The notes under the pieces are model-generated. The model had not been told where the DNA came from. It searched no databases and saw only the letters and a program-made list of their open reading frames with translations. The position numbers and the translations under genes were made by a program. This document shows, piece after piece, positions 2,699 to 41,944 of a stretch of DNA of 64,000 nt; the first letter of the stretch is position 1; every line of letters begins with the position of its first letter. Origin of the DNA: a phage; the sequence record PX246730.1; one strand, given 5' to 3'.

Positions 2699-2764
2699 CA
2701 ATTTTGAGAGGGCTATTTAGCCCCTCCCTTAAAGAGTTCTTACGAGTATTCTTTAAAGGAGCAG

Positions 2765-2833
2765 AAGACCAAATACAGCAAGTTACTTAAAATTTCAAGC
2801 CAATTTAATTTTGAAAAATTTAAAACTTGGTCT
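2765..2833 (+). repeat. spacer hairpin element copy c (AGACCAA ... TTGGTCT)
   Basis: conserved gcagaagaccaaatacagcaagttacttaa and cttggtctgg. Confidence 0.6.
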
Positions 2834-2852
2834 GGCTCAACAAATTTACAGA

Positions 2853-2978
2853 AGACCGTTTACAGCAAAACTTAAACAATCTATTTCTCTGGTAAAGAAA
2901 AGGCGAAGGTTCGATTCCTTCACTCGGCAGATGTCGAGTTGGTGTAATGGTAGCACTTAAGATGATAAACAACGGTCT
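2853..2978 (+). repeat. spacer hairpin element copy d, enclosing tRNA-like pieces
   Basis: inverted repeat AGACCGT (2853-2859) / ACGGTCT (2972-2978) flanks the permuted tRNA-Thr-like segment. Confidence 0.6.
2884..2957 (+). tRNA. tRNA-Thr(GGT)-like, apparently circularly permuted (3' two-thirds upstream of 5' third)
   Basis: 2884-2929: anticodon arm TTTCT-ctGGTaa-AGAAA, T-arm GAAGG-TTCGATT-CCTTC, 3' acceptor ACTCGGC plus discriminator; 2933-2957: 5' acceptor GTCGAGT (pairs 7 of 7 with ACTCGGC incl. one GU) plus complete D-arm GTGT-aatggta-GCAC. Confidence 0.35.
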
Positions 2979-3129
2979 GGTAATTATCTTTGTAGATAAG
3001 TTATTAAGCTTACCTGTGAGTATGCGACCACAAAGGGTGAAAGGGTAAATTCTAGATTTAAACCCAACAAGGCACATCGCTACAGACCTTAAGCAAGTCT
3101 GGGTAGCTTATCTACAAAGATAATTTAAT

Positions 3130-3202
3130 GGAAGTGTAGCAGAATGGTGATGCGGCAGACTTTTAATCTGACAGGCGATGGGTTCGAATCCCTCCACTTC
3201 TA
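3130..3202 (+). tRNA. tRNA-Lys(TTT) (probable)
   Basis: acceptor GGAAGTG/CACTTCT, anticodon loop ctTTTaa, T-loop TTCGAAT, CCA encoded; T-stem imperfect. Confidence 0.55.
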
Positions 3203-3209
3203 CCAATAT

Positions 3210-3283
3210 GGTTCAGTCGCAGATAAGGTAATGCAGGGGTCTCATAAGCCCTATGAATGTGGGTTCGATTCCCATCTGAACCT
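3210..3283 (+). tRNA. tRNA with CAT anticodon (Met, fMet or Ile2)
   Basis: perfect acceptor GGTTCAG/CTGAACC, anticodon stem GGGGT/GCCCT with loop ctCATaa, T-arm GTGGG-TTCGATT-CCCAT, CCA encoded. Confidence 0.65.
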
Positions 3284-3288
3284 CCAAT

Positions 3289-3361
3289 GCTGTGAAAGCA
3301 CATATGGATGTGCATTCGGCTGATAACCGAAAGGAAGAAGGTTCGAATCCTTCTCACAGTA
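3289..3361 (+). tRNA. tRNA-Ile(GAT)
   Basis: acceptor GCTGTGA/TCACAGT, D-stem GCAC/GTGC, anticodon stem TTCGG/CCGAA with loop ctGATaa, T-arm GAAGG-TTCGAAT-CCTTC, CCA encoded. Confidence 0.75.
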
Positions 3362-3379
3362 CCAATTTCAATAAAGTTG

Positions 3380-3408
3380 TTGACACTGAGATGTGACTAC
3401 TTTATAGT
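3380..3408 (+). promoter_or_regulatory. sigma70-like promoter (TTGACA-N17-TATAGT) inside tRNA cluster
   Basis: -35 TTGACA 3380-3385, -10 TATAGT 3403-3408. Confidence 0.55.
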
Positions 3409-3613
3409 AACCTTAGTTTTCGTTGCGTAGCGTCTATTTTGCAAATTTAAAATAAATGCAAACGACAATGTTTTTCTGGCAGTAGCTTGATAGGCTAAAC
3501 ACCAGTGAGGTCTTCCAATCCCTCATCAAAGAATTTGGCGTACTAGCCCACGGTATGATTAATAAGGTGGGCATCTTTAAGGGCTTTCTAAGAGAGTCTT
3601 TAAAGATTAATTA

Positions 3614-3692
3614 CGGGGCGTATCTCATCTGTCTTCTAAACAGACGTTAACCGAGTAAGTGGAGTATGCGGGTTCGAGTCCTGCCGCCTCGA
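3614..3692 (+). tRNA. tRNA-like element with TCT (Arg-type) anticodon loop, atypical D region
   Basis: acceptor CGGGGCG/CGCCTCG, perfect anticodon arm TCTGT-ctTCTaa-ACAGA, T-loop TTCGAGT, CCA encoded; only 7 nt between acceptor and anticodon stem, 22 nt before T-arm. Confidence 0.4.
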
Positions 3693-3838
3693 CCAATTTA
3701 GTTAGCAGATTACTTAGACGACCTAAGCGGGTCTTCCTGTAGGGAGGTGGTCTGTATCTCATGTTTTCCAGAACATGTAAATAATCTGAGAAGGGGCTTT
3801 ACAGTGTTGAGATAATACGGTAAGCTTCGAATTATAGT

Positions 3839-3918
3839 ATGGGACGATGTTAAGACTCTAAGGCATGAGCAACGGCTTCCAACACCGTTTCAAAGGGGTT
3901 CGACTCCTCCGTCCCATG
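3839..3918 (+). tRNA. tRNA, anticodon unresolved (possibly Trp CCA)
   Basis: perfect acceptor ATGGGAC/GTCCCAT, T-loop TTCGACT, CCA encoded; anticodon region ACGG-cttCCAaca-CCGT has a 9-nt loop. Confidence 0.45.
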
Positions 3919-3934
3919 CCAAAGTCTTATTAGG

Positions 3935-4022
3935 GGTAGGTAGCGGCTAATGGTAGCCAAACTGTCTTGAAAACAGTTGCCACTGTAGAGATACGGTGAG
4001 GGTTCGACTTCTTTACTTACCG
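3935..4022 (+). tRNA. tRNA-Ser(TGA)
   Basis: acceptor GGTAGGT/ACTTACC, anticodon arm ACTGT-ctTGAaa-ACAGT, long variable arm, T-loop TTCGACT. Confidence 0.7.
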
Positions 4023-4178
4023 CCTAATAAGATTTTAAAGCCAAGCTTCATTCGGATGTTGCTTTGGTATCCCTCGTGTTGTCGAACACACTAATAAAGC
4101 ACCTAGTAGGTGTCACGGAGAAGAGATAATATCAAGCTCTCCAAAGGTTCTAGTCACCGGATTAAACAAGACTATGCA

Positions 4179-4200
4179 AAGACCTTTTTAGGTCTTTTTA
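4179..4200 (+). terminator. hairpin plus T-run (possible intrinsic terminator or processing site)
   Basis: AAGACC-ttttta-GGTCTT followed by TTTA. Confidence 0.4.
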
Positions 4201-4278
4201 GAGGGCTTCTAAGGTTATTACAGCTTGTTGTGGAACCTTGTTGCTTAGGTTCTTAGAAGTTCTCTAAAAAGATTTAAT

Positions 4279-4353
4279 GGGAGATTGACGGTAATTGGTA
4301 AACCTATCTCGCTTAGAACGAGATGTTTGAGGGTTCGAATCCCTTGTCTCCTA
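4279..4353 (+). tRNA. tRNA-Leu(TAG), short variable loop
   Basis: acceptor GGGAGAT/GTCTCCT, anticodon arm ATCTCG-ctTAGaa-CGAGAT, T-arm GAGGG-TTCGAAT-CCCTT, CCA encoded. Confidence 0.55.
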
Positions 4354-4363
4354 CCAAATTAAT

Positions 4364-4436
4364 GCAGGTGTAGCAAAATGGTTATGCGGCTGACTCTTAA
4401 TCAGTAAGACGATGGGTTCAATTCCCTCCACCTGTA
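4364..4436 (+). tRNA. tRNA-Lys(CTT) (probable)
   Basis: acceptor GCAGGTG/CACCTGT, D-stem GCA/TGC, anticodon arm GCTGA-ctCTTaa-TCAGT, T-loop TTCAATT, CCA encoded. Confidence 0.6.
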
Positions 4437-4445
4437 CCAGATATT

Positions 4446-4518
4446 GGGGATGTAGTTTACATGGTTAAAACATAAGTTTTGCAAAATTAAGTACAGGGTT
4501 CAATTCCCTGCTTCTCCA
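4446..4518 (+). tRNA. tRNA-Ala(TGC)
   Basis: acceptor with G3:T70 wobble pair (Ala identity element), D-stem GTTT/AAAC, anticodon loop ttTGCaa, T-arm CAGGG-TTCAATT-CCCTG, CCA encoded. Confidence 0.65.
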
Positions 4519-4527
4519 CCAATTAGT

Positions 4528-4599
4528 GCATCCATAGTTTAAACGGGAAAATTACAGTCTTCCAAACTGAGGTTGAGGGTTCGATTCCCTCTGGATGCT
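4528..4599 (+). tRNA. tRNA-Gly(TCC)
   Basis: perfect acceptor GCATCCA/TGGATGC, anticodon arm CAGT-ctTCCaa-ACTG, T-arm GAGGG-TTCGATT-CCCTC, CCA encoded. Confidence 0.7.
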
Positions 4600-4608
4600 C
4601 CAAATAAT

Positions 4609-4682
4609 GCTGCTTTCGTATAATTGGCTATTACACATCCCTTGTAAGGATGGAAATGCAGGTTCGAGTCCTGTGAGCAGCA
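4609..4682 (+). tRNA. tRNA-Thr(TGT)
   Basis: acceptor GCTGCTT/GAGCAGC, anticodon arm CATCC-ctTGTaa-GGATG, T-arm GCAGG-TTCGAGT-CCTGT, CCA encoded. Confidence 0.75.
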
Positions 4683-4780
4683 CCAATTCAGAGGTCAAGT
4701 GAAAGACCGCTGGTGTCAACTGAAGACCGTAACAAATTCCACGGAGTTGAGTTAGCGGCACAACTTCAGACCTCTTTCAC

Positions 4781-4852
4781 ACTCGCTTAGTTTATATGGT
4801 AAAACACCACCCTTACAAGATGAAGAAAAAGGTTCAAGTCCTTTAGTGAGTA
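4781..4852 (+). tRNA. tRNA-Val(TAC) (tentative; weak anticodon stem)
   Basis: acceptor ACTCGCT/AGTGAGT, D-stem GTTT/AAAC, loop ctTACaa, perfect T-arm AAAGG-TTCAAGT-CCTTT, CCA encoded. Confidence 0.45.
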
Positions 4853-4856
4853 CCAT

Positions 4857-4931
4857 GTTCCAGTATCCCAATTGGCAGAGGATGCAAGCTCAAACCTTGT
4901 ACTAGTGACGGTTCGAATCCGTCTTGGAACA
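4857..4931 (+). tRNA. tRNA-Leu(CAA), short variable loop
   Basis: acceptor GTTCCAG/TTGGAAC, D-stem TCC/GGA with 11-nt loop, anticodon arm GCAAG-ctCAAac-CTTGT, T-arm GACGG-TTCGAAT-CCGTC, CCA encoded. Confidence 0.55.
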
Positions 4932-4939
4932 CCAATTTT

Positions 4940-5012
4940 GCAGGATTAGTTCAAATGGATAGAGCAACAGTCTACGAAGCTGTTAATAGGGGTTCGAATC
5001 CCTTATCCTGCG
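4940..5012 (+). tRNA. tRNA-Arg(ACG)
   Basis: perfect acceptor GCAGGAT/ATCCTGC, anticodon arm ACAGT-ctACGaa-GCTGT, T-arm TAGGG-TTCGAAT-CCCTT, CCA encoded. Confidence 0.75.
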
Positions 5013-5034
5013 CCAATTTAAAGAGGCTATTTAG

Positions 5035-5592
5035 ATGAGATATTTGAAGTATGCTTCATGGATTTTCTTAGCTTTGTTAGAGCCATTTGCAGCAATCTTA
5101 GCAGTAATTTTAGCACCCTTTGTGGTTCCATTCTACAGTGAAAAGAAAGGACACTTACCTTTTGGATTCAGATGGATGGAGACTTATGATAACCCAATTG
5201 ATGGTGACAAAGGCCACGTTGAGAGATGGGCTAAGATTAGAAAGATTGGTAAGCTCGGTGTTTATATGCAGAGAGTTGGATGGCTCTGGAGAAACAAAGC
5301 TTATAACTTCTCTTACCATGTGCTAGGAAGAGATGTAAAAGATGTTACTAAGTGGAAAGGTAATATCAACGTAAGTTCTAACCCTGAAGATAATCAGACA
5401 GGTTATCTCCTAATGTGGAACAGTAATGCTTGGGGATTATTCGCTTTTACCCCATCAATTAAAATCTTTGGTAAACAATTCTACTGGAGAATTTATGTTG
5501 GATGGAAACTTAAAAGTGTTGTCCCAGAAGAAAGAGCATTCTCAAGGGAAAGAGTTATGTTGGCATTCTTTATTCATCCACTAAGAAAGTAA
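5035..5592 (+). CDS. hypothetical membrane protein (185 aa) embedded in tRNA cluster
   Basis: ORF track; hydrophobic N-terminal segment (IFLALLEPFAAILAVILAPFVVPF); Trp/aromatic-rich. Confidence 0.5.
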   Translation: MRYLKYASWIFLALLEPFAAILAVILAPFVVPFYSEKKGHLPFGFRWMETYDNPIDGDKGHVERWAKIRKIGKLGVYMQRVGWLWRNKAYNFSYHVLGRDVKDVTKWKGNINVSSNPEDNQTGYLLMWNSNAWGLFAFTPSIKIFGKQFYWRIYVGWKLKSVVPEERAFSRERVMLAFFIHPLRK

Positions 5593-5600
5593 AGATTTAA

Positions 5601-5673
5601 AGGGGATTAGTTTACAAGGTTAAAACCTCGGTCTTTGAAATCGAAGAAGTTGGTTCAATTCCAACATCCCCCA
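5601..5673 (+). tRNA. tRNA-Gln(TTG)
   Basis: acceptor AGGGGAT/ATCCCCC (1:72 mismatch), D-stem GTTT/AAAC, anticodon arm TCGGT-ctTTGaa-ATCGA, T-arm GTTGG-TTCAATT-CCAAC, CCA encoded. Confidence 0.6.
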
Positions 5674-5678
5674 CCAAT

Positions 5679-5754
5679 GCTCCATTACTCCAATTGGCAG
5701 AGAGGCCAGACTTAAAATCTGTGTTATGTATCGGTTCGAATCCGATATGGAGTA
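5679..5754 (+). tRNA. tRNA-Leu(TAA), short variable loop
   Basis: acceptor GCTCCAT/ATGGAGT, D-arm paralogous to the CAA tRNA (caattggcaga), loop ctTAAaa, T-arm ATCGG-TTCGAAT-CCGAT, CCA encoded. Confidence 0.55.
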
Positions 5755-5762
5755 CCAAATTT

Positions 5763-5835
5763 AGCGGTATAGCATAACTGGCAATGCAGCAGTCTCTGAA
5801 GCTGTCCTATTAAGGTTCAAATCCTTATGCCGCTG
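5763..5835 (+). tRNA. tRNA-Gln(CTG)
   Basis: acceptor AGCGGTA/TGCCGCT, anticodon arm GCAGT-ctCTGaa-GCTGT, T-arm TAAGG-TTCAAAT-CCTTA, CCA encoded. Confidence 0.6.
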
Positions 5836-5869
5836 CCACTTCTAAGGGTTCTTACGAGAGTCCTTAAAT

Positions 5870-7395: not shown

Positions 7396-8997
7396 ATGGA
7401 CTTAAATGCTGTTAAGCAGAAGCGAGTGGAAGATGTTAGGAAAGTCCTAGCTGGAGAGTTGGGGCTTTCTGATGAAGTAAAAGAAATTATCAAATCATTC
7501 GGTAAAGACCCCTCTAAATTCCTTCCAACTCAAATTCTGACTTTATTAAGATATACACCAGACCAAGTTCGCCTCATCTTTAAATTGATGACTGATAAGA
7601 ACTATGTAGCCCCTCAACCGGGTTCTCAAGAGGTCTTTTTAAATACTAATGCTGACTTGGTTCTTTATGGTGGTGCTGCTGGTGCTGGTAAAACTGCTGC
7701 ATTGTTAATGGACTCTTTAAGGTTTATTGAAGACCCTAACTATAATGCTGTATATTTCCGTCGAAACACAACACAGTTACAAGGTGGTTTATGGCCTGCT
7801 GCAAAGAAACTATTTGGTAAGTTTGGTGGGGTTCCTCACGAGCAGAAAATGACTATCACATTCCCTTCTGGGGCGACTATCAAGTTTACCTACCTAGAAC
7901 TTGAAAAGCACGCTGAAGGTCATCAGGGTATTGAATACTCAGCTATTTACTTTGACGAAGGTACACACTTCTCTGCTTCACAGATTTCATACCTACAAAC
8001 CCGTCTACGTTCTGGTGCTGAAGGTGATTCATACATGAAGATTTCCATGAACCCAGACAGAGACCACTTTATTTATGATTGGGTAGAACCATTCCTAGAT
8101 GAAGAAGGTTATCCAGACCCTGAAAAGTGTGGTCGTATTCGTTGGTATGTAATGAACGATGGTGTGATGGTTTCTGATTGGGAGAGAGACAAGATTCTTG
8201 AAATGTTCCCTCTTGAGATTCCTCAAACATACACCTTCATTTCTGGTACGATTGATGATAACCCAATTCTTGACTTCTTAGAACCAAAGTATCGTGGTAA
8301 GCTTGAAAACAACACTCCTGTAAACGTTGCAAGACTTCGTTTCGGTAACTGGAAGGCTCGTGCAGAAGGTTCAAACTATTGGCAAAGACAATGGTGTGAA
8401 ATTGTTGATTCACTCCCAGAAGATGTATTTGATGTTAGAGCATGGGACTTAGCAGCAACTTTACCATCTGAGGTTAACCCTAATCCAGACTGGACAGCAG
8501 GTGTTAAGATGGGTAAATCTAAAAAAGACGGTTGCTATTATATCATTGATGTAGTAAGATTTAGAGATAGACCCTCTGGAGTCGAAACACAAATTAATTT
8601 GACTGCTGAAAGTGACGGTAAGCGAACTGGTATTTTTATCCCTCAAGACCCAGGCGCTGCTGGTAAATCCTACGCAACATCCCTCATCAGGAAACTTGCC
8701 GAGAAAGGTTATCGAGCAAGAGCTAAACCAACAAATAAAGATAAAGTTACCCGATTTGCGGGGTTTTCTGCTGCTTCTGAAGCTGGACTTGTAAAAGTCT
8801 TGAGAGGTAGCTGGAATGAAGCTTACTTCCAAGAGCTTGAAGGCTTTTGTGGTGATGGTAAAACTAAAGATGACCAAGTGGATGCTACCAGTGATGCTTT
8901 CAACAGTCTTAACGAAGTTAAATTATTCAAGCCACCATCAATGGGTGCTCACACAGACTTAGTGAGAGGAAACCCATATGAGGGGCTTAGACGTTGA
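7396..8997 (+). CDS. terminase large subunit
   Basis: Walker A-like VLYGGAAGAGKT near N-terminus; position ahead of portal; ATG at 7396 preceded by GGAGG (track ORF starts at TTG 7381). Confidence 0.85.
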   Translation: MDLNAVKQKRVEDVRKVLAGELGLSDEVKEIIKSFGKDPSKFLPTQILTLLRYTPDQVRLIFKLMTDKNYVAPQPGSQEVFLNTNADLVLYGGAAGAGKTAALLMDSLRFIEDPNYNAVYFRRNTTQLQGGLWPAAKKLFGKFGGVPHEQKMTITFPSGATIKFTYLELEKHAEGHQGIEYSAIYFDEGTHFSASQISYLQTRLRSGAEGDSYMKISMNPDRDHFIYDWVEPFLDEEGYPDPEKCGRIRWYVMNDGVMVSDWERDKILEMFPLEIPQTYTFISGTIDDNPILDFLEPKYRGKLENNTPVNVARLRFGNWKARAEGSNYWQRQWCEIVDSLPEDVFDVRAWDLAATLPSEVNPNPDWTAGVKMGKSKKDGCYYIIDVVRFRDRPSGVETQINLTAESDGKRTGIFIPQDPGAAGKSYATSLIRKLAEKGYRARAKPTNKDKVTRFAGFSAASEAGLVKVLRGSWNEAYFQELEGFCGDGKTKDDQVDATSDAFNSLNEVKLFKPPSMGAHTDLVRGNPYEGLRR

Positions 8998-34499: not shown

Positions 34500-34930
34500 G
34501 CAGATTTTTTATAAGGCTACTGCCATCCTTCCATACATTACCTTACCACACCCTACCATACCTAACCAAACTACACCATACCATACCTAACCAAACTACA
34601 CCATACAATACCTTTTTAAAAGACCTTGTTTAAAGGCCTTTTAAAAAGGTAAGTCTCATTTTAATGTAGCTGAGACTAACTACCCATACATTACCTTACC
34701 ATACCAGACCTCACCCTACCTTAACTTACCTTACTCTATCCTACCAAACACCACTTAAAAACCCTCTTAGAAGACTCTTAAGTGATGTAATCGGATTTTT
34801 ATGTAGCTCCGATTAACTACCCATACCAAGCCTAACCTGACCGCACCAAACCTTACAACACCACACCATACCAAACCTCATTAAAAGACCCTCTTAAAGA
34901 CCTTTTAAAAAGGAGCCTCCGAAGAGGCTA
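34500..34930. repeat. long intergenic repeat region, copy 1 (G-free A/C-rich tracts plus hairpins)
   Basis: blocks 34500-34542, 34617-34705, 34752-34787 near-identical to 36049-36091, 36151-36239, 36316-36351. Confidence 0.8.
34901..34930 (-). terminator. intrinsic terminator (minus strand)
   Basis: on minus strand AGCCTC-ttcg-GAGGCT followed by CCTTTTT. Confidence 0.55.
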
Positions 34931-34940
34931 CCTAGTCAAC

Positions 34941-35381
34941 TTAGAAAGGTTTTCTACGTTGCTTGTTAATGTTAGCTTTCATAGCAGCTAAATGGTTTTG
35001 CTGTTCAATCAGTCGTGAACGTTCTTGATGACTAAGTGCCATAGTGTTCACATTCTCAATCGCTTGAGTGGCTTGCTTTAAAGCGCGACCAATCTTACCA
35101 GACATTTTACGTTTTGCAATAGTTGCTTGATGCTTAGGTTCAACCACACGATAACCAACACCCATTGAAGCAACCAGATAAATCTTCTCTTCTTTAAGAA
35201 GCTTCTCAATAAACTTCTCAAGTCGGTTTAGACGTGTAAGCGCATAAGCCTTCATTTCATCTTCGTACTTAACAATGTCGCCTTGATAAGTTGGCTTCAC
35301 AATACCTAAGAAGGTATCCATCTCAGAGTGTGATACAGTGTCACCGTAACTAAACTTTGCTGCTAATGCTTTTGTATTCAT
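34941..35381 (-). CDS. hypothetical protein (146 aa)
   Basis: ORF track; flanked by long direct repeats. Confidence 0.5.
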   Translation of the reverse strand: MNTKALAAKFSYGDTVSHSEMDTFLGIVKPTYQGDIVKYEDEMKAYALTRLNRLEKFIEKLLKEEKIYLVASMGVGYRVVEPKHQATIAKRKMSGKIGRALKQATQAIENVNTMALSHQERSRLIEQQNHLAAMKANINKQRRKPF

Positions 35382-35383
35382 AA

Positions 35384-35989
<606 letters not shown>

Positions 35990-36048
35990 TTAGTTGATTG
36001 TTAAGTTGTTTGTAAAGAACCCTCAACAGAAGACTCTTTAGAAACTTG

Positions 36049-36351
36049 GCAGATTTTTTATAAGGCTACTGCCATCCTTCCATACATTACCAAACAGTAC
36101 CGTGCCACAACACACCATACCCAACCCCACCTAACTCTACCACACCTCATTAAAAGACCTTGTTTAAAGACCTTTTAAAAAGGTAAGTCTCATTTTAATG
36201 TAGCTGAGACTAACTACCCATACATTACCTTACCATACCGTACTTTACCTTACCGTACCGTACTTTACCCTACCGTACCGGACAATACTTAACCCGACCT
36301 CGCCCTACCGGACATCACTTAAAAACCCTTTTAAAAGACTCTTAAGTGATG
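36049..36351. repeat. long intergenic repeat region, copy 2
   Basis: near-identical blocks shared with 34500-34787; contains G-free tract ccgtactttacc repeats. Confidence 0.8.
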
Positions 36352-36416
36352 CTGGTGAGTACCCGTTGGTTTATGCTGCTCAGTATACTCACCAAATTTT
36401 CTATGTCAACAACTTT

Positions 36417-41718: not shown

Positions 41719-41944
41719 ACATTACTGCAAAAAATTATAAAAAGCAAGTTGACAATGTACTTGACAAGGTGTTAATCTTTGCGAAGTGGGTTTTTACTTA
41801 AAAGGTTACTTAACAGTTTAACTATACAGATACTTTAAAACTCTTAAAAGATTATTTAATAGCTTTTAAAAGCTTTAAAGTATAACGTATAGAATACGTT
41901 AAGATAAAAGATTAAAACTTAATAGTTACTTAAAAGAGGCTTAC

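Follow-up and report, generated by a model that had tools for sequence, protein, structure and literature searches.

The window analysed here is a stretch of 64,000 nucleotides (nt) of phage DNA (record PX246730.1), which carries 24 transfer RNA (tRNA) genes, as called by ARAGORN, on its plus strand between 2113 and 6951. Between 2000 and 7000 it is 96–98% identical to many Felixounavirus genomes, including those of Felix O1, wV8 and the REP phages, and on this evidence (97% identity) the window is assigned to a Felix O1-like phage of the genus Felixounavirus. Upstream of the tRNA cluster, an open reading frame (ORF) at 532–1947 encodes a DUF2828/DUF7788 protein that the Felix O1 annotation lists as 'RNA-binding protein'. 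Promoter-like sites on the plus strand (at least 10 of 12 hexamer matches) are found at 1966, 2057, 3380, 6452 and 7033, the first three being strong and sigma-70-like, and within the tRNA region a terminator scan detected terminators only 3′ of the cluster. Four RNA hairpins, S1 to S4, are spread over this region; because strong promoters lie upstream and terminators only past the cluster, they are inside long, mostly untranslated plus-strand transcripts. Each stops 1–6 nt (up to about 10 nt in relatives) short of the structured RNA that comes next; where this is a tRNA, the bases in between form the same UAAU-type leader as precedes the other tRNAs.

A sequence-only reading had described four variants of a linear DNA motif, embedded in a small palindromic context between tRNA genes. 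Two of these, at 2735–2756 and 5847–5868, match the strict consensus RGTTCTTACGAGNRTYCTTWAA on the plus strand with 0 mismatches, and no further site was found in the 64-kilobase (kb) window with up to 3 mismatches allowed. The motif is non-random, as had been proposed: shuffled sequences contain a mean of 0.03 matches, 0 of 100 shuffles contained two or more, and an independent model returned further matches with E = 1e-5 and 3e-4. The remaining two variants are diverged relatives. The one at 3582–3606 is a real relative and corresponds to hairpin S2, while the coordinates 4222–4252 were off, taking in no more than the inside of the larger element S3 and the first part of its 3′ arm. A hairpin is present at all four sites, in keeping with the palindromic context, and the family is indeed separate from the CAGAAGACC...GGTCTGG stems. 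Only S4, located between tRNA-Gln and tRNA-His, lies strictly between tRNA genes: S1 has tRNA-Tyr on one side and non-tRNA stem-loop RNAs on the other, S2 is flanked by a tag-encoding RNA and an odd tRNA-like gene, and S3 by a non-tRNA stretch and tRNA-Leu. Nor is the family limited to tRNA spacers, since related hairpins occur on the minus strand of a second noncoding locus (34609–36351). S1–S4 and these minus-strand copies make up a genuine family of small RNA hairpins, set as punctuation in the noncoding-RNA regions. A loose regular-expression count of hairpins was uninformative (6 observed, 0–6 in shuffles).

The unit of this family is not a linear DNA motif but an RNA hairpin on the strand that is transcribed: for 9 of 10 hairpins, the locally transcribed strand gives a more stable fold than its complement, and pairing is kept through G-U pairs. 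We compared orthologous spacers cut out of relatives, namely 27 Felix O1-like loci from IMG/VR with the neighbouring protein (L002–L028), Felix O1 and phiEa21-4, all of them closely related sequences. S1–S4 are conserved across the Ounavirinae, and nearly all substitutions are compatible with pairing, including switches of G-U to either A-U or G-C, with double compensatory changes in a few cases. At pair 35-50 of S1, 16 distinct orthologues show A-U 11 times, G-C twice, G-U twice and A-C once (in Felix O1), and the loop reads UGCG in one genome, which is still of the UNCG class. S2 displays G-U to G-C and C-G to U-G switches, and S4 G-U to A-U switches on either arm. In S3, 99.6% of 264 cells are paired, with 11 extra pair types that mostly reflect G-U to A-U or G-C changes and with one double change from U-A to G-C. 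In an alignment of the motif (A4) that combines S1, S4 and the phiEa21-4 copy, 91.7% of cells are paired and double changes occur at 5 pairs; 0 of 500 shuffles were as good, and pairing collapsed when the partners were slid against each other. Because the substitutions preserve pairing, including via G-U switches, this comparison argues for selection on the transcript rather than on DNA. An exact scan of IMG/VR with the 16-nt core retrieved only Ounavirinae contigs of 84–94 kb.

The minus-strand copies were identified with a covariance model (R1), for which S1, S4 and the phiEa21-4 copy were the sole training sequences and which was run unfiltered over the whole window. Its best minus-strand matches, at 34877–34911 and 36146–36181, correspond to hairpins Y2 and Y1, and weaker matches of 14–17 bits, at 34612–34647, 36313–36349 and 34749–34785, correspond to Y3, X1 and X2 (Table 1). 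Matches within protein-coding regions were weak and formed no good hairpins. The model has no S3 match at E ≤ 10 in the 64-kb window, and the membership of S3 by sequence is therefore weak. Hc, located upstream of the ORF at 35384–35971 and identical in wV8 and dune, was counted as a family member on its folding and sequence resemblance, not on its R1 score. The arms of the X, Y and Hc hairpins read UUAA(A)GRG.YCUU and ARGRG.YCUUUAA, as in S1–S4. The second locus lies downstream of the DNA ligase gene; sigma-70-like promoters at 36409 and 34479 drive its transcription to the left, so the minus-strand copies are likewise on the sense strand. X1 follows a sigma-70-like promoter by about 45 nt, Y2 is directly 3′ of a strong UUCG-looped terminator (34929–34914), and X2 is also present in Felix O1.

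Table 1 Hairpins of the S1–S4 family and the companion of S1 in the window (z, folding z-score; R1, covariance-model score; energies in kcal/mol for the sense and antisense strands).
Feature	Coordinates	Strand	Structure	Folding and scores
Companion of S1	2710–2723	+	GGGCU-AUUU-AGCCC, directly 5′ of S1	found by folding
S1	2724–2761	+	lower stem CUCC/GGAG (4 base pairs), 1x1 mismatch, upper stem UUAAAGAGU.CU/AG.AUUCUUUAA (9+2 base pairs), UACG tetraloop; exact motif	z = -2.7
S2	3573–3607	+	AUCUUUAAGGGCUUUC-UAA-GAGAGUCUUUAAAGAU; 16 contiguous pairs (4 G-U), UAA loop	z = -5.6; -16.8 sense, -4.6 antisense
S3	4190–4275	+	branched; 24-pair closing stem (4190–4214 with 4251–4275), branched top	z = -5.0
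S4	5843–5866	+	UAAGGGUUCU-UACG-AGAGUCCUUA; 10 pairs	z = -2.3
Y3	34609–34651	-	19 pairs	R1 16.8 bits
X2	34749–34787	-	18 pairs; CUUC-UAA-GAG top as in S2	R1 14.0 bits; -16.9 sense, -4.5 antisense
Y2	34878–34911	-	12 pairs	R1 27.8 bits, E = 1e-5
Hc	36009–36044	-	UAAAGAGUCUUC-UGUU-GAGGGUUCUUUA; 12 pairs	R1 only 9.1 bits, E = 5.5
Y1	36147–36181	-	UUAAAAGGUCUU-UAAAC-AAGGUCUUUUAA; 12 pairs	R1 23.4 bits, E = 3e-4
X1	36313–36351	-	CAUCACUUAAGAGUCUUU-UAA-AAGGGUUUUUAAGUGAUG; 18 pairs	R1 14.8 bits; -15.5 sense, -9.0 antisense

Within the cluster, the hairpins adjoin the ends of different RNAs. The 3′ end of S1 is 1–2 nt short of the first CAGAAGACC...GGUCUGG stem-loop RNA; the companion hairpin preceding S1 has a stem conserved in 16 sequences and a variable loop, and relatives carry insertions just upstream of S1. 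S2 lies directly 3′ of the tag-encoding RNA (about 3410–3572) and 4 nt 5′ of the tRNA-like gene at 3612–3695. S3 ends 3 nt before tRNA-Leu (4279), and the gene 3′ of it varies among genomes. S4 begins 4 nt past the CCA of tRNA-Gln(CUG), and 3 nt separate it from tRNA-His (5870). At the S2 position, three hairpins alternate in relatives (S2A/S2B/S2K alleles overall): the window type, a 62-nt type and the phiEa21-4 type. The 62-nt hairpin, found in Felix O1 and others, is unrelated in sequence and has 3 compensatory pairs, and the phiEa21-4 hairpin contains the exact core GGUUCUUACGAGAGUC. The two S2 alleles of Felixounavirus are freely combined with either of two alleles of the tRNA-Arg(UCU) gene that follows. 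Because the S2 alleles are replaced wholesale with a hairpin retained, this junction evidently requires a hairpin, the sequence of which is replaceable. A weak terminator-like hairpin, AAAGACC-UUUUUA-GGUCUUU, with a loop that varies in relatives, is present at 4176–4200 (plus strand); its 3′ arm, ending near 4198, doubles as the outer 5′ arm of S3, and the two structures therefore exclude each other in part.

The most likely reading, which we consider about an even bet (probability roughly 0.5), is that the S1–S4 family represents hairpins for RNase III processing and 3′ stabilization, of the kind found in phages T4 and T7, in polycistronic tRNA and noncoding RNA (ncRNA) transcripts. The promoter-like sites suggest that the cluster would be transcribed from sigma-70-type promoters as polycistronic precursors, in which each hairpin would fold fast, helped in S1 and S4 by a UNCG tetraloop. 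Host RNase III would then recognize the hairpin as in the T4 tRNA-Gln leader and the T7 early-mRNA sites, through an AU-rich upper stem of about 10–18 base pairs (bp) with an AAGG/CCUU-type box at its base. Cutting at the stem's 3′ base, or close to it, would part the upstream from the downstream RNA, leaving the downstream tRNA or Y-like RNA with a short U/A-rich leader for RNase P to remove, while the upstream RNA would be capped at its 3′ end by the hairpin and so shielded from exonucleases. In the case of S2, this capped RNA would be the transfer-messenger RNA (tmRNA)-like tag RNA, and S2 would become its 3′-terminal hairpin once the downstream tRNA is released. We infer the enzyme, the location of the cut and the stabilizing effect.

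The closest parallel is found in T4. The hairpin CAAGGGUUCUU-GUUA-GAGAGCCUUUG stands 9 nt upstream of tRNA-Gln, the first T4 tRNA after the upstream mRNA, and this hairpin (AAGGGUUCUU...GAGAGCCUUU) is very similar to those of the window. Like S4, it comprises 10–11 bp, is AU-rich and is capped by a tetraloop, and in T4, too, an AU-rich leader precedes the tRNA. The 5′ arm AAGGGUUCU(U) is common to the T4 leader and S4, identical over 10 nt, and the 3′ arms (GAGAGCCUUU in T4, AGAGUCCUU in S4) are nearly identical. Defined by its arms (AAGGGUUCU and AGAG.C.UU), a stem of about 10 bp and a distance of ≤10 nt to a tRNA, the T4-leader type describes S4 fully and S2K and S2 nearly. A pattern designed after inspection of both the S4 and T4 sequences had 88 matches in viral contigs: 19 were Felix-like and followed by tRNA-His at 4 nt, 3 were T4-like and followed by tRNA-Gln at 9 nt, and the remaining 66 had no tRNA nearby. 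There are differences: the T4 leader precedes tRNA-Gln, whereas the Felix-type hairpins precede tRNAs for His, Arg or Leu or a Y-like RNA, and the 5-kb T4 tRNA region that was examined contains one copy compared to about ten in our window. The maturation of T4 tRNAs reportedly depends on RNase III, as McClain is said to have described in 1979, Pragai and Apirion in 1981, and Gurevitz and Apirion in 1983. The involvement of RNase III in this process is also stated in PMC4810235, which cites McClain 1979 and Gurevitz & Apirion 1983. If the processing reading holds, the S hairpins would be closely related in function to the T4 tRNA-Gln leader.

The tetraloops offer a second point of comparison. 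Hairpins with UNCG tetraloops were reportedly first noted in T4 intercistronic regions, by Tuerk and colleagues in 1988. S1, S4 and the phiEa21-4 copy all have a UACG loop, with UGCG as the sole variant seen. In contrast to the canonical C-G, the closing pair of S1 and S4 is U-A, and other family members have loops that are not UNCG.

The RNase III sites of T7 (R0.3, R0.5, R1, R1.1, R1.3, R4.7 and R18.5) are intercistronic hairpins like the S hairpins and follow the same plan, with a CAAGG...CCUUUAU base box, an upper stem of 9–11 bp, G-U pairs and a loop of 4–5 nt. They differ in separating mRNAs rather than tRNAs or ncRNAs, and in having a larger internal loop and a lower stem. RNase III cuts these sites on the 3′ side, which leaves the hairpin on the 3′ end of the upstream RNA and thereby stabilizes it. 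The enzyme acts on a largely uninterrupted RNA duplex of about one turn at minimum, and such a duplex is present in S3 (24 pairs), Y3 (19), X (18) and S2 (16), with 10–12 pairs in S1, S4, Y1, Y2 and Hc. The valley of the E. coli enzyme accommodates about 22 bp, and its in vivo preference is for WSSW at positions B′A′AB, which flank the cut, together with proximal and distal boxes (PMC6212723). In the stems of S4, the T4 leader and the T7 sites, a lone G-C/G-C step has A-U or G-U pairs on both sides; this is compatible with the WSSW rule, which can be applied only from a cut position.

Several observations weigh against RNase III processing. The literature searched contains no cleavage data or transcript-end maps for Felix O1-like phages and gives no exact position for the RNase III cut in the T4 tRNA precursor, which would lie in or just 3′ of the leader hairpin. 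The likeness to T4 amounts to one 10-mer plus the complementarity that it forces (P about 0.02), given that a shuffled T4 leader has a 10-nt match to any S hairpin in 2.2% of dinucleotide shuffles (P ~0.022). The R1 score of the T4 hairpin (6.3 bits) is not significant, and R1 finds nothing in T7. A covariance model of the seven T7 RNase III sites (R2) has no significant match in the window; S2 ranks second with 14.3 bits (E = 0.4) and Hc scores 10.4 bits (E = 5), while S1, S3 and S4 are unlisted. The 10–12 pairs of S4, S1 and the Y hairpins are at the low end for E. coli RNase III. Finally, the evidence for pairing is good but not overwhelming: the sequences compared are close relatives, in which most substitutions altered only one partner of a pair.

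A role as RNase III-type signals would make the hairpins the elements that define transcript architecture in the tRNA/ncRNA cluster of the Felix O1 group. They would reveal which RNAs are released separately and where their 3′ ends lie, including that of the conserved tmRNA-like tag RNA, so far mentioned only briefly, in genome announcements, and would provide concrete boundaries for cloning and testing the RNAs of the cluster. The likeness to T4 suggests that one leader-hairpin design is reused across enterobacterial phage families to feed tRNA precursors into host processing. No description of S1–S4-type hairpins was found in the literature searched. The hairpins themselves embody no new principle and are chiefly useful for annotation; the neighbouring RNAs are more unusual.

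A purely structural role is a credible but unlikely alternative. The hairpins would then be passive spacers that insulate the RNAs from misfolding and block 3′-to-5′ exonucleases or Rho loading, and RNase P or RNase E would separate the RNAs with no cut by RNase III. The complete replaceability of the sequence at the S2 position, where a hairpin is always retained, fits such a generic role, as do the quick and stable folding favoured by UNCG loops, the presence of the same AU-rich leader before tRNAs with and without a hairpin, and the failure of R2 to match. However, an uncut S4 so close to the CCA of tRNA-Gln (4 nt) would impede exonucleolytic 3′ trimming, judging from tRNA maturation in E. 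coli. In addition, two paralogues and phiEa21-4 share the apical GUUCUUACGAG, and there is a similar leader in T4; together this suggests recognition beyond structure.

We regard it as improbable that the hairpins form a phage-specific punctuation code, read by a dedicated factor instead of or besides RNase III, which would coordinate an unusual set of ncRNAs and in which hairpin duplication would drive the shuffling of modules between loci. That set would comprise the tmRNA-like tag RNA lacking an obvious tRNA-like domain, the Y-RNA-like stem-loops with permuted tRNA-like cores, the odd tRNA variants and the GGU-rich RNAs. About as improbable is a role in binding one specific protein, of the phage or of the host, that would regulate or package the ncRNAs through the hairpins. 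One candidate would be the adjacent DUF2828/DUF7788 protein, as the gene for this putative RNA-binding protein lies just upstream of the cluster; yet phiEa21-4 has the hairpin but no DUF2828/DUF7788 homologue between gene 42 and the tRNAs. The sequence of the loop and upper stem is conserved across genera and the family is restricted to two ncRNA loci, as a protein-binding site might be, but the loops vary among members (UACG, UAA, UAAAC, UGUU) and the S2 alleles are interchangeable.

An explanation at the level of DNA has a similarly slim chance. The hairpins would be dispersed inverted repeats that serve as recombination junctions for shuffling RNA-gene modules, or as targets of homing endonucleases. 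A precedent is provided by the promoter-early stem-loop (PeSL) cassettes of T4-type phages, which are likewise short dispersed stem-loops that border variable modules and may promote their shuffling (PMC2839356, PMC4122927). In the Felix O1 group, hairpins mark the borders of modules: S2 and tRNA-Arg alleles, two of each, are freely combined, genomes differ in the gene that follows S3, insertions are found immediately before S1, and hairpin-containing repeats at the second locus flank a two-ORF cassette that is absent in Felix O1. Against this, 9 of 10 hairpins fold better on the sense strand, and the substitutions pass through G-U pairs, which would be mismatched in DNA and in the complementary strand. 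The PeSL motif combines a promoter with a terminator, whereas S1–S4 have neither an attached promoter nor a U-tract and show strand asymmetry at the RNA level. S1–S4 were thus rejected as PeSL cassettes, since none adjoins a promoter-like site, and as homing-endonuclease sites, since the HNH genes of Felix O1 are inserted elsewhere than at the hairpins. Intrinsic terminators or attenuators within the cluster are very improbable: S1–S4 are stable intergenic stem-loops, and S3 and Y2 adjoin terminator-like hairpins, but the stems are AU-rich, promoterless tRNA genes follow immediately downstream, the terminator scan was negative, and the 3′ flanks (AGCAGAAG, UAAUUACG, AAUGGGAG and AAUGUGGC) contain no U-run, so S1–S4 were rejected as Rho-independent terminators.

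Comparison with known RNA families was likewise negative. No Rfam 15 family matched the S1–S4 hairpins at or near its gathering score; a match over S3 to a miRNA precursor is spurious (32.7 bits compared to a 52-bit cutoff), and S2 falls within a sub-threshold tmRNA alignment. S1–S4 were rejected as tRNA genes or fragments, as neither ARAGORN nor the Rfam tRNA model called them. A reading of GGGUUC...GAGUCC as a degenerate T-arm remnant lacked support from the tRNA model. CUUACGA as a 7-nt mimic or decoy of an anticodon loop was discarded, since the register gives a loop of 4 nt, or of 8 if the top two pairs open.

The tmRNA-like RNA upstream of S2 (3410–3572, plus strand) is conserved and is preceded by the promoter at 3380. 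Its tag frame (3459–3494) reads GCA AAC GAC AAU GUU UUU CUG GCA GUA GCU UGA UAG, encoding ANDNVFLAVA followed by two stops; the equivalent peptides are ANDNAFLAVA in phiSUSP1 and ANDAQFLAVA in phiEa21-4. Relatives show synonymous changes in the frame and covarying flanking helices, including downstream, and the stop codons are located in a hairpin loop. The RNA scores 21.7 bits against the Rfam tmRNA model, below threshold, and no convincing tRNA-like domain of its own was found in it. ARAGORN called a permuted tmRNA only in Moogle, where the tag was paired with a distant Y-like element, and a tmRNA is noted in the Moogle genome announcement (PMC4319497). In phiEa21-4 (L034), a tRNA-like element of about 175 nt (7879–8060), with acceptor strands GGGUGAUU.../...AAUCACUCGCCA, a T-arm and a long insert, is positioned just upstream of the tag-RNA promoter of that phage.

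The gene 3′ of S2 (3612–3695, plus strand) is an odd tRNA-like gene, with 33 bits against the Rfam tRNA model and no call by ARAGORN. Its anticodon loop is CUUCUAA (anticodon UCU); it lacks a normal D-arm, includes a long extra region and carries the alanine identity elements G3-U70 and A73. In many relatives, the gene is allelic with a canonical tRNA-Arg(UCU), and its anticodon stem covaries (UCUGU/ACAGA, GCGGU/ACCGC, GCUGU/ACAGC). A further plus-strand tRNA-like element, also not called by ARAGORN, is located at 3843–3920, with the acceptor UGGGACG/CGUCCCA, a normal T-arm and, by eye, an apparent 9-nt anticodon loop CUUCCAACA.

Stems of the CAGAAGACC...GGUCUGG type are found at 2286–2360, 2450–2515, 2763–2835 and 2849–2980 on the plus strand. 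The last of these encloses a circularly permuted tRNA-like core, in which the T-arm and the 3′ strand of the acceptor are joined by a short link to the 5′ strand of the acceptor and the D-arm, an arrangement that recalls the bacterial YrlA-type Y RNAs (PMC4201824). It is followed, at 2990–3125 (plus strand), by a structured RNA of about 130 nt with a 17-bp closing stem (AUUAUCUUUGUAGAUAAG/CUUAUCUACAAAGAUAAU), which ends 5 nt before tRNA-Lys and, by eye, resembles the arrangement of S3.

At the second locus (34540–36300, minus strand), five GGU-rich tracts of 60–90 nt (for example, GGUAUGGUGUGGUGUUGUAAGGUUUGGUGCGG) alternate with the X and Y hairpins. Tracts and hairpins form repeats around the optional two-ORF cassette (34941–35971) that Felix O1 lacks, and part of the equivalent region is annotated as a direct repeat in wV8. 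The small ORFs inside the GGU-rich tracts are not conserved; small ORFs after the Y hairpins, one of 22 and another of 30 amino acids, were rejected as coding, the start codon being lost in wV8 (AUG to AUA). A weak R1 match (11.2 bits) at 41841–41881, in a divergent promoter region, was not counted as a family member. It is a 21-bp AT-rich palindrome (UACUUUAAAGCUUUUAAAAG...) that lies intergenically between leftward and rightward gene blocks and could be an operator or origin-type element. Hairpins of the form AAGGGUUCUUUAA(U/C)AAGAGUCUUU are also present in an unrelated group of metagenomic phage contigs of IMG/VR (L066, L076, L095, L096, L109, L110, L129 and L130), where they are intergenic and precede protein genes, followed in most contigs by AAACAAGUCAAGGAG, a ribosome-binding site.

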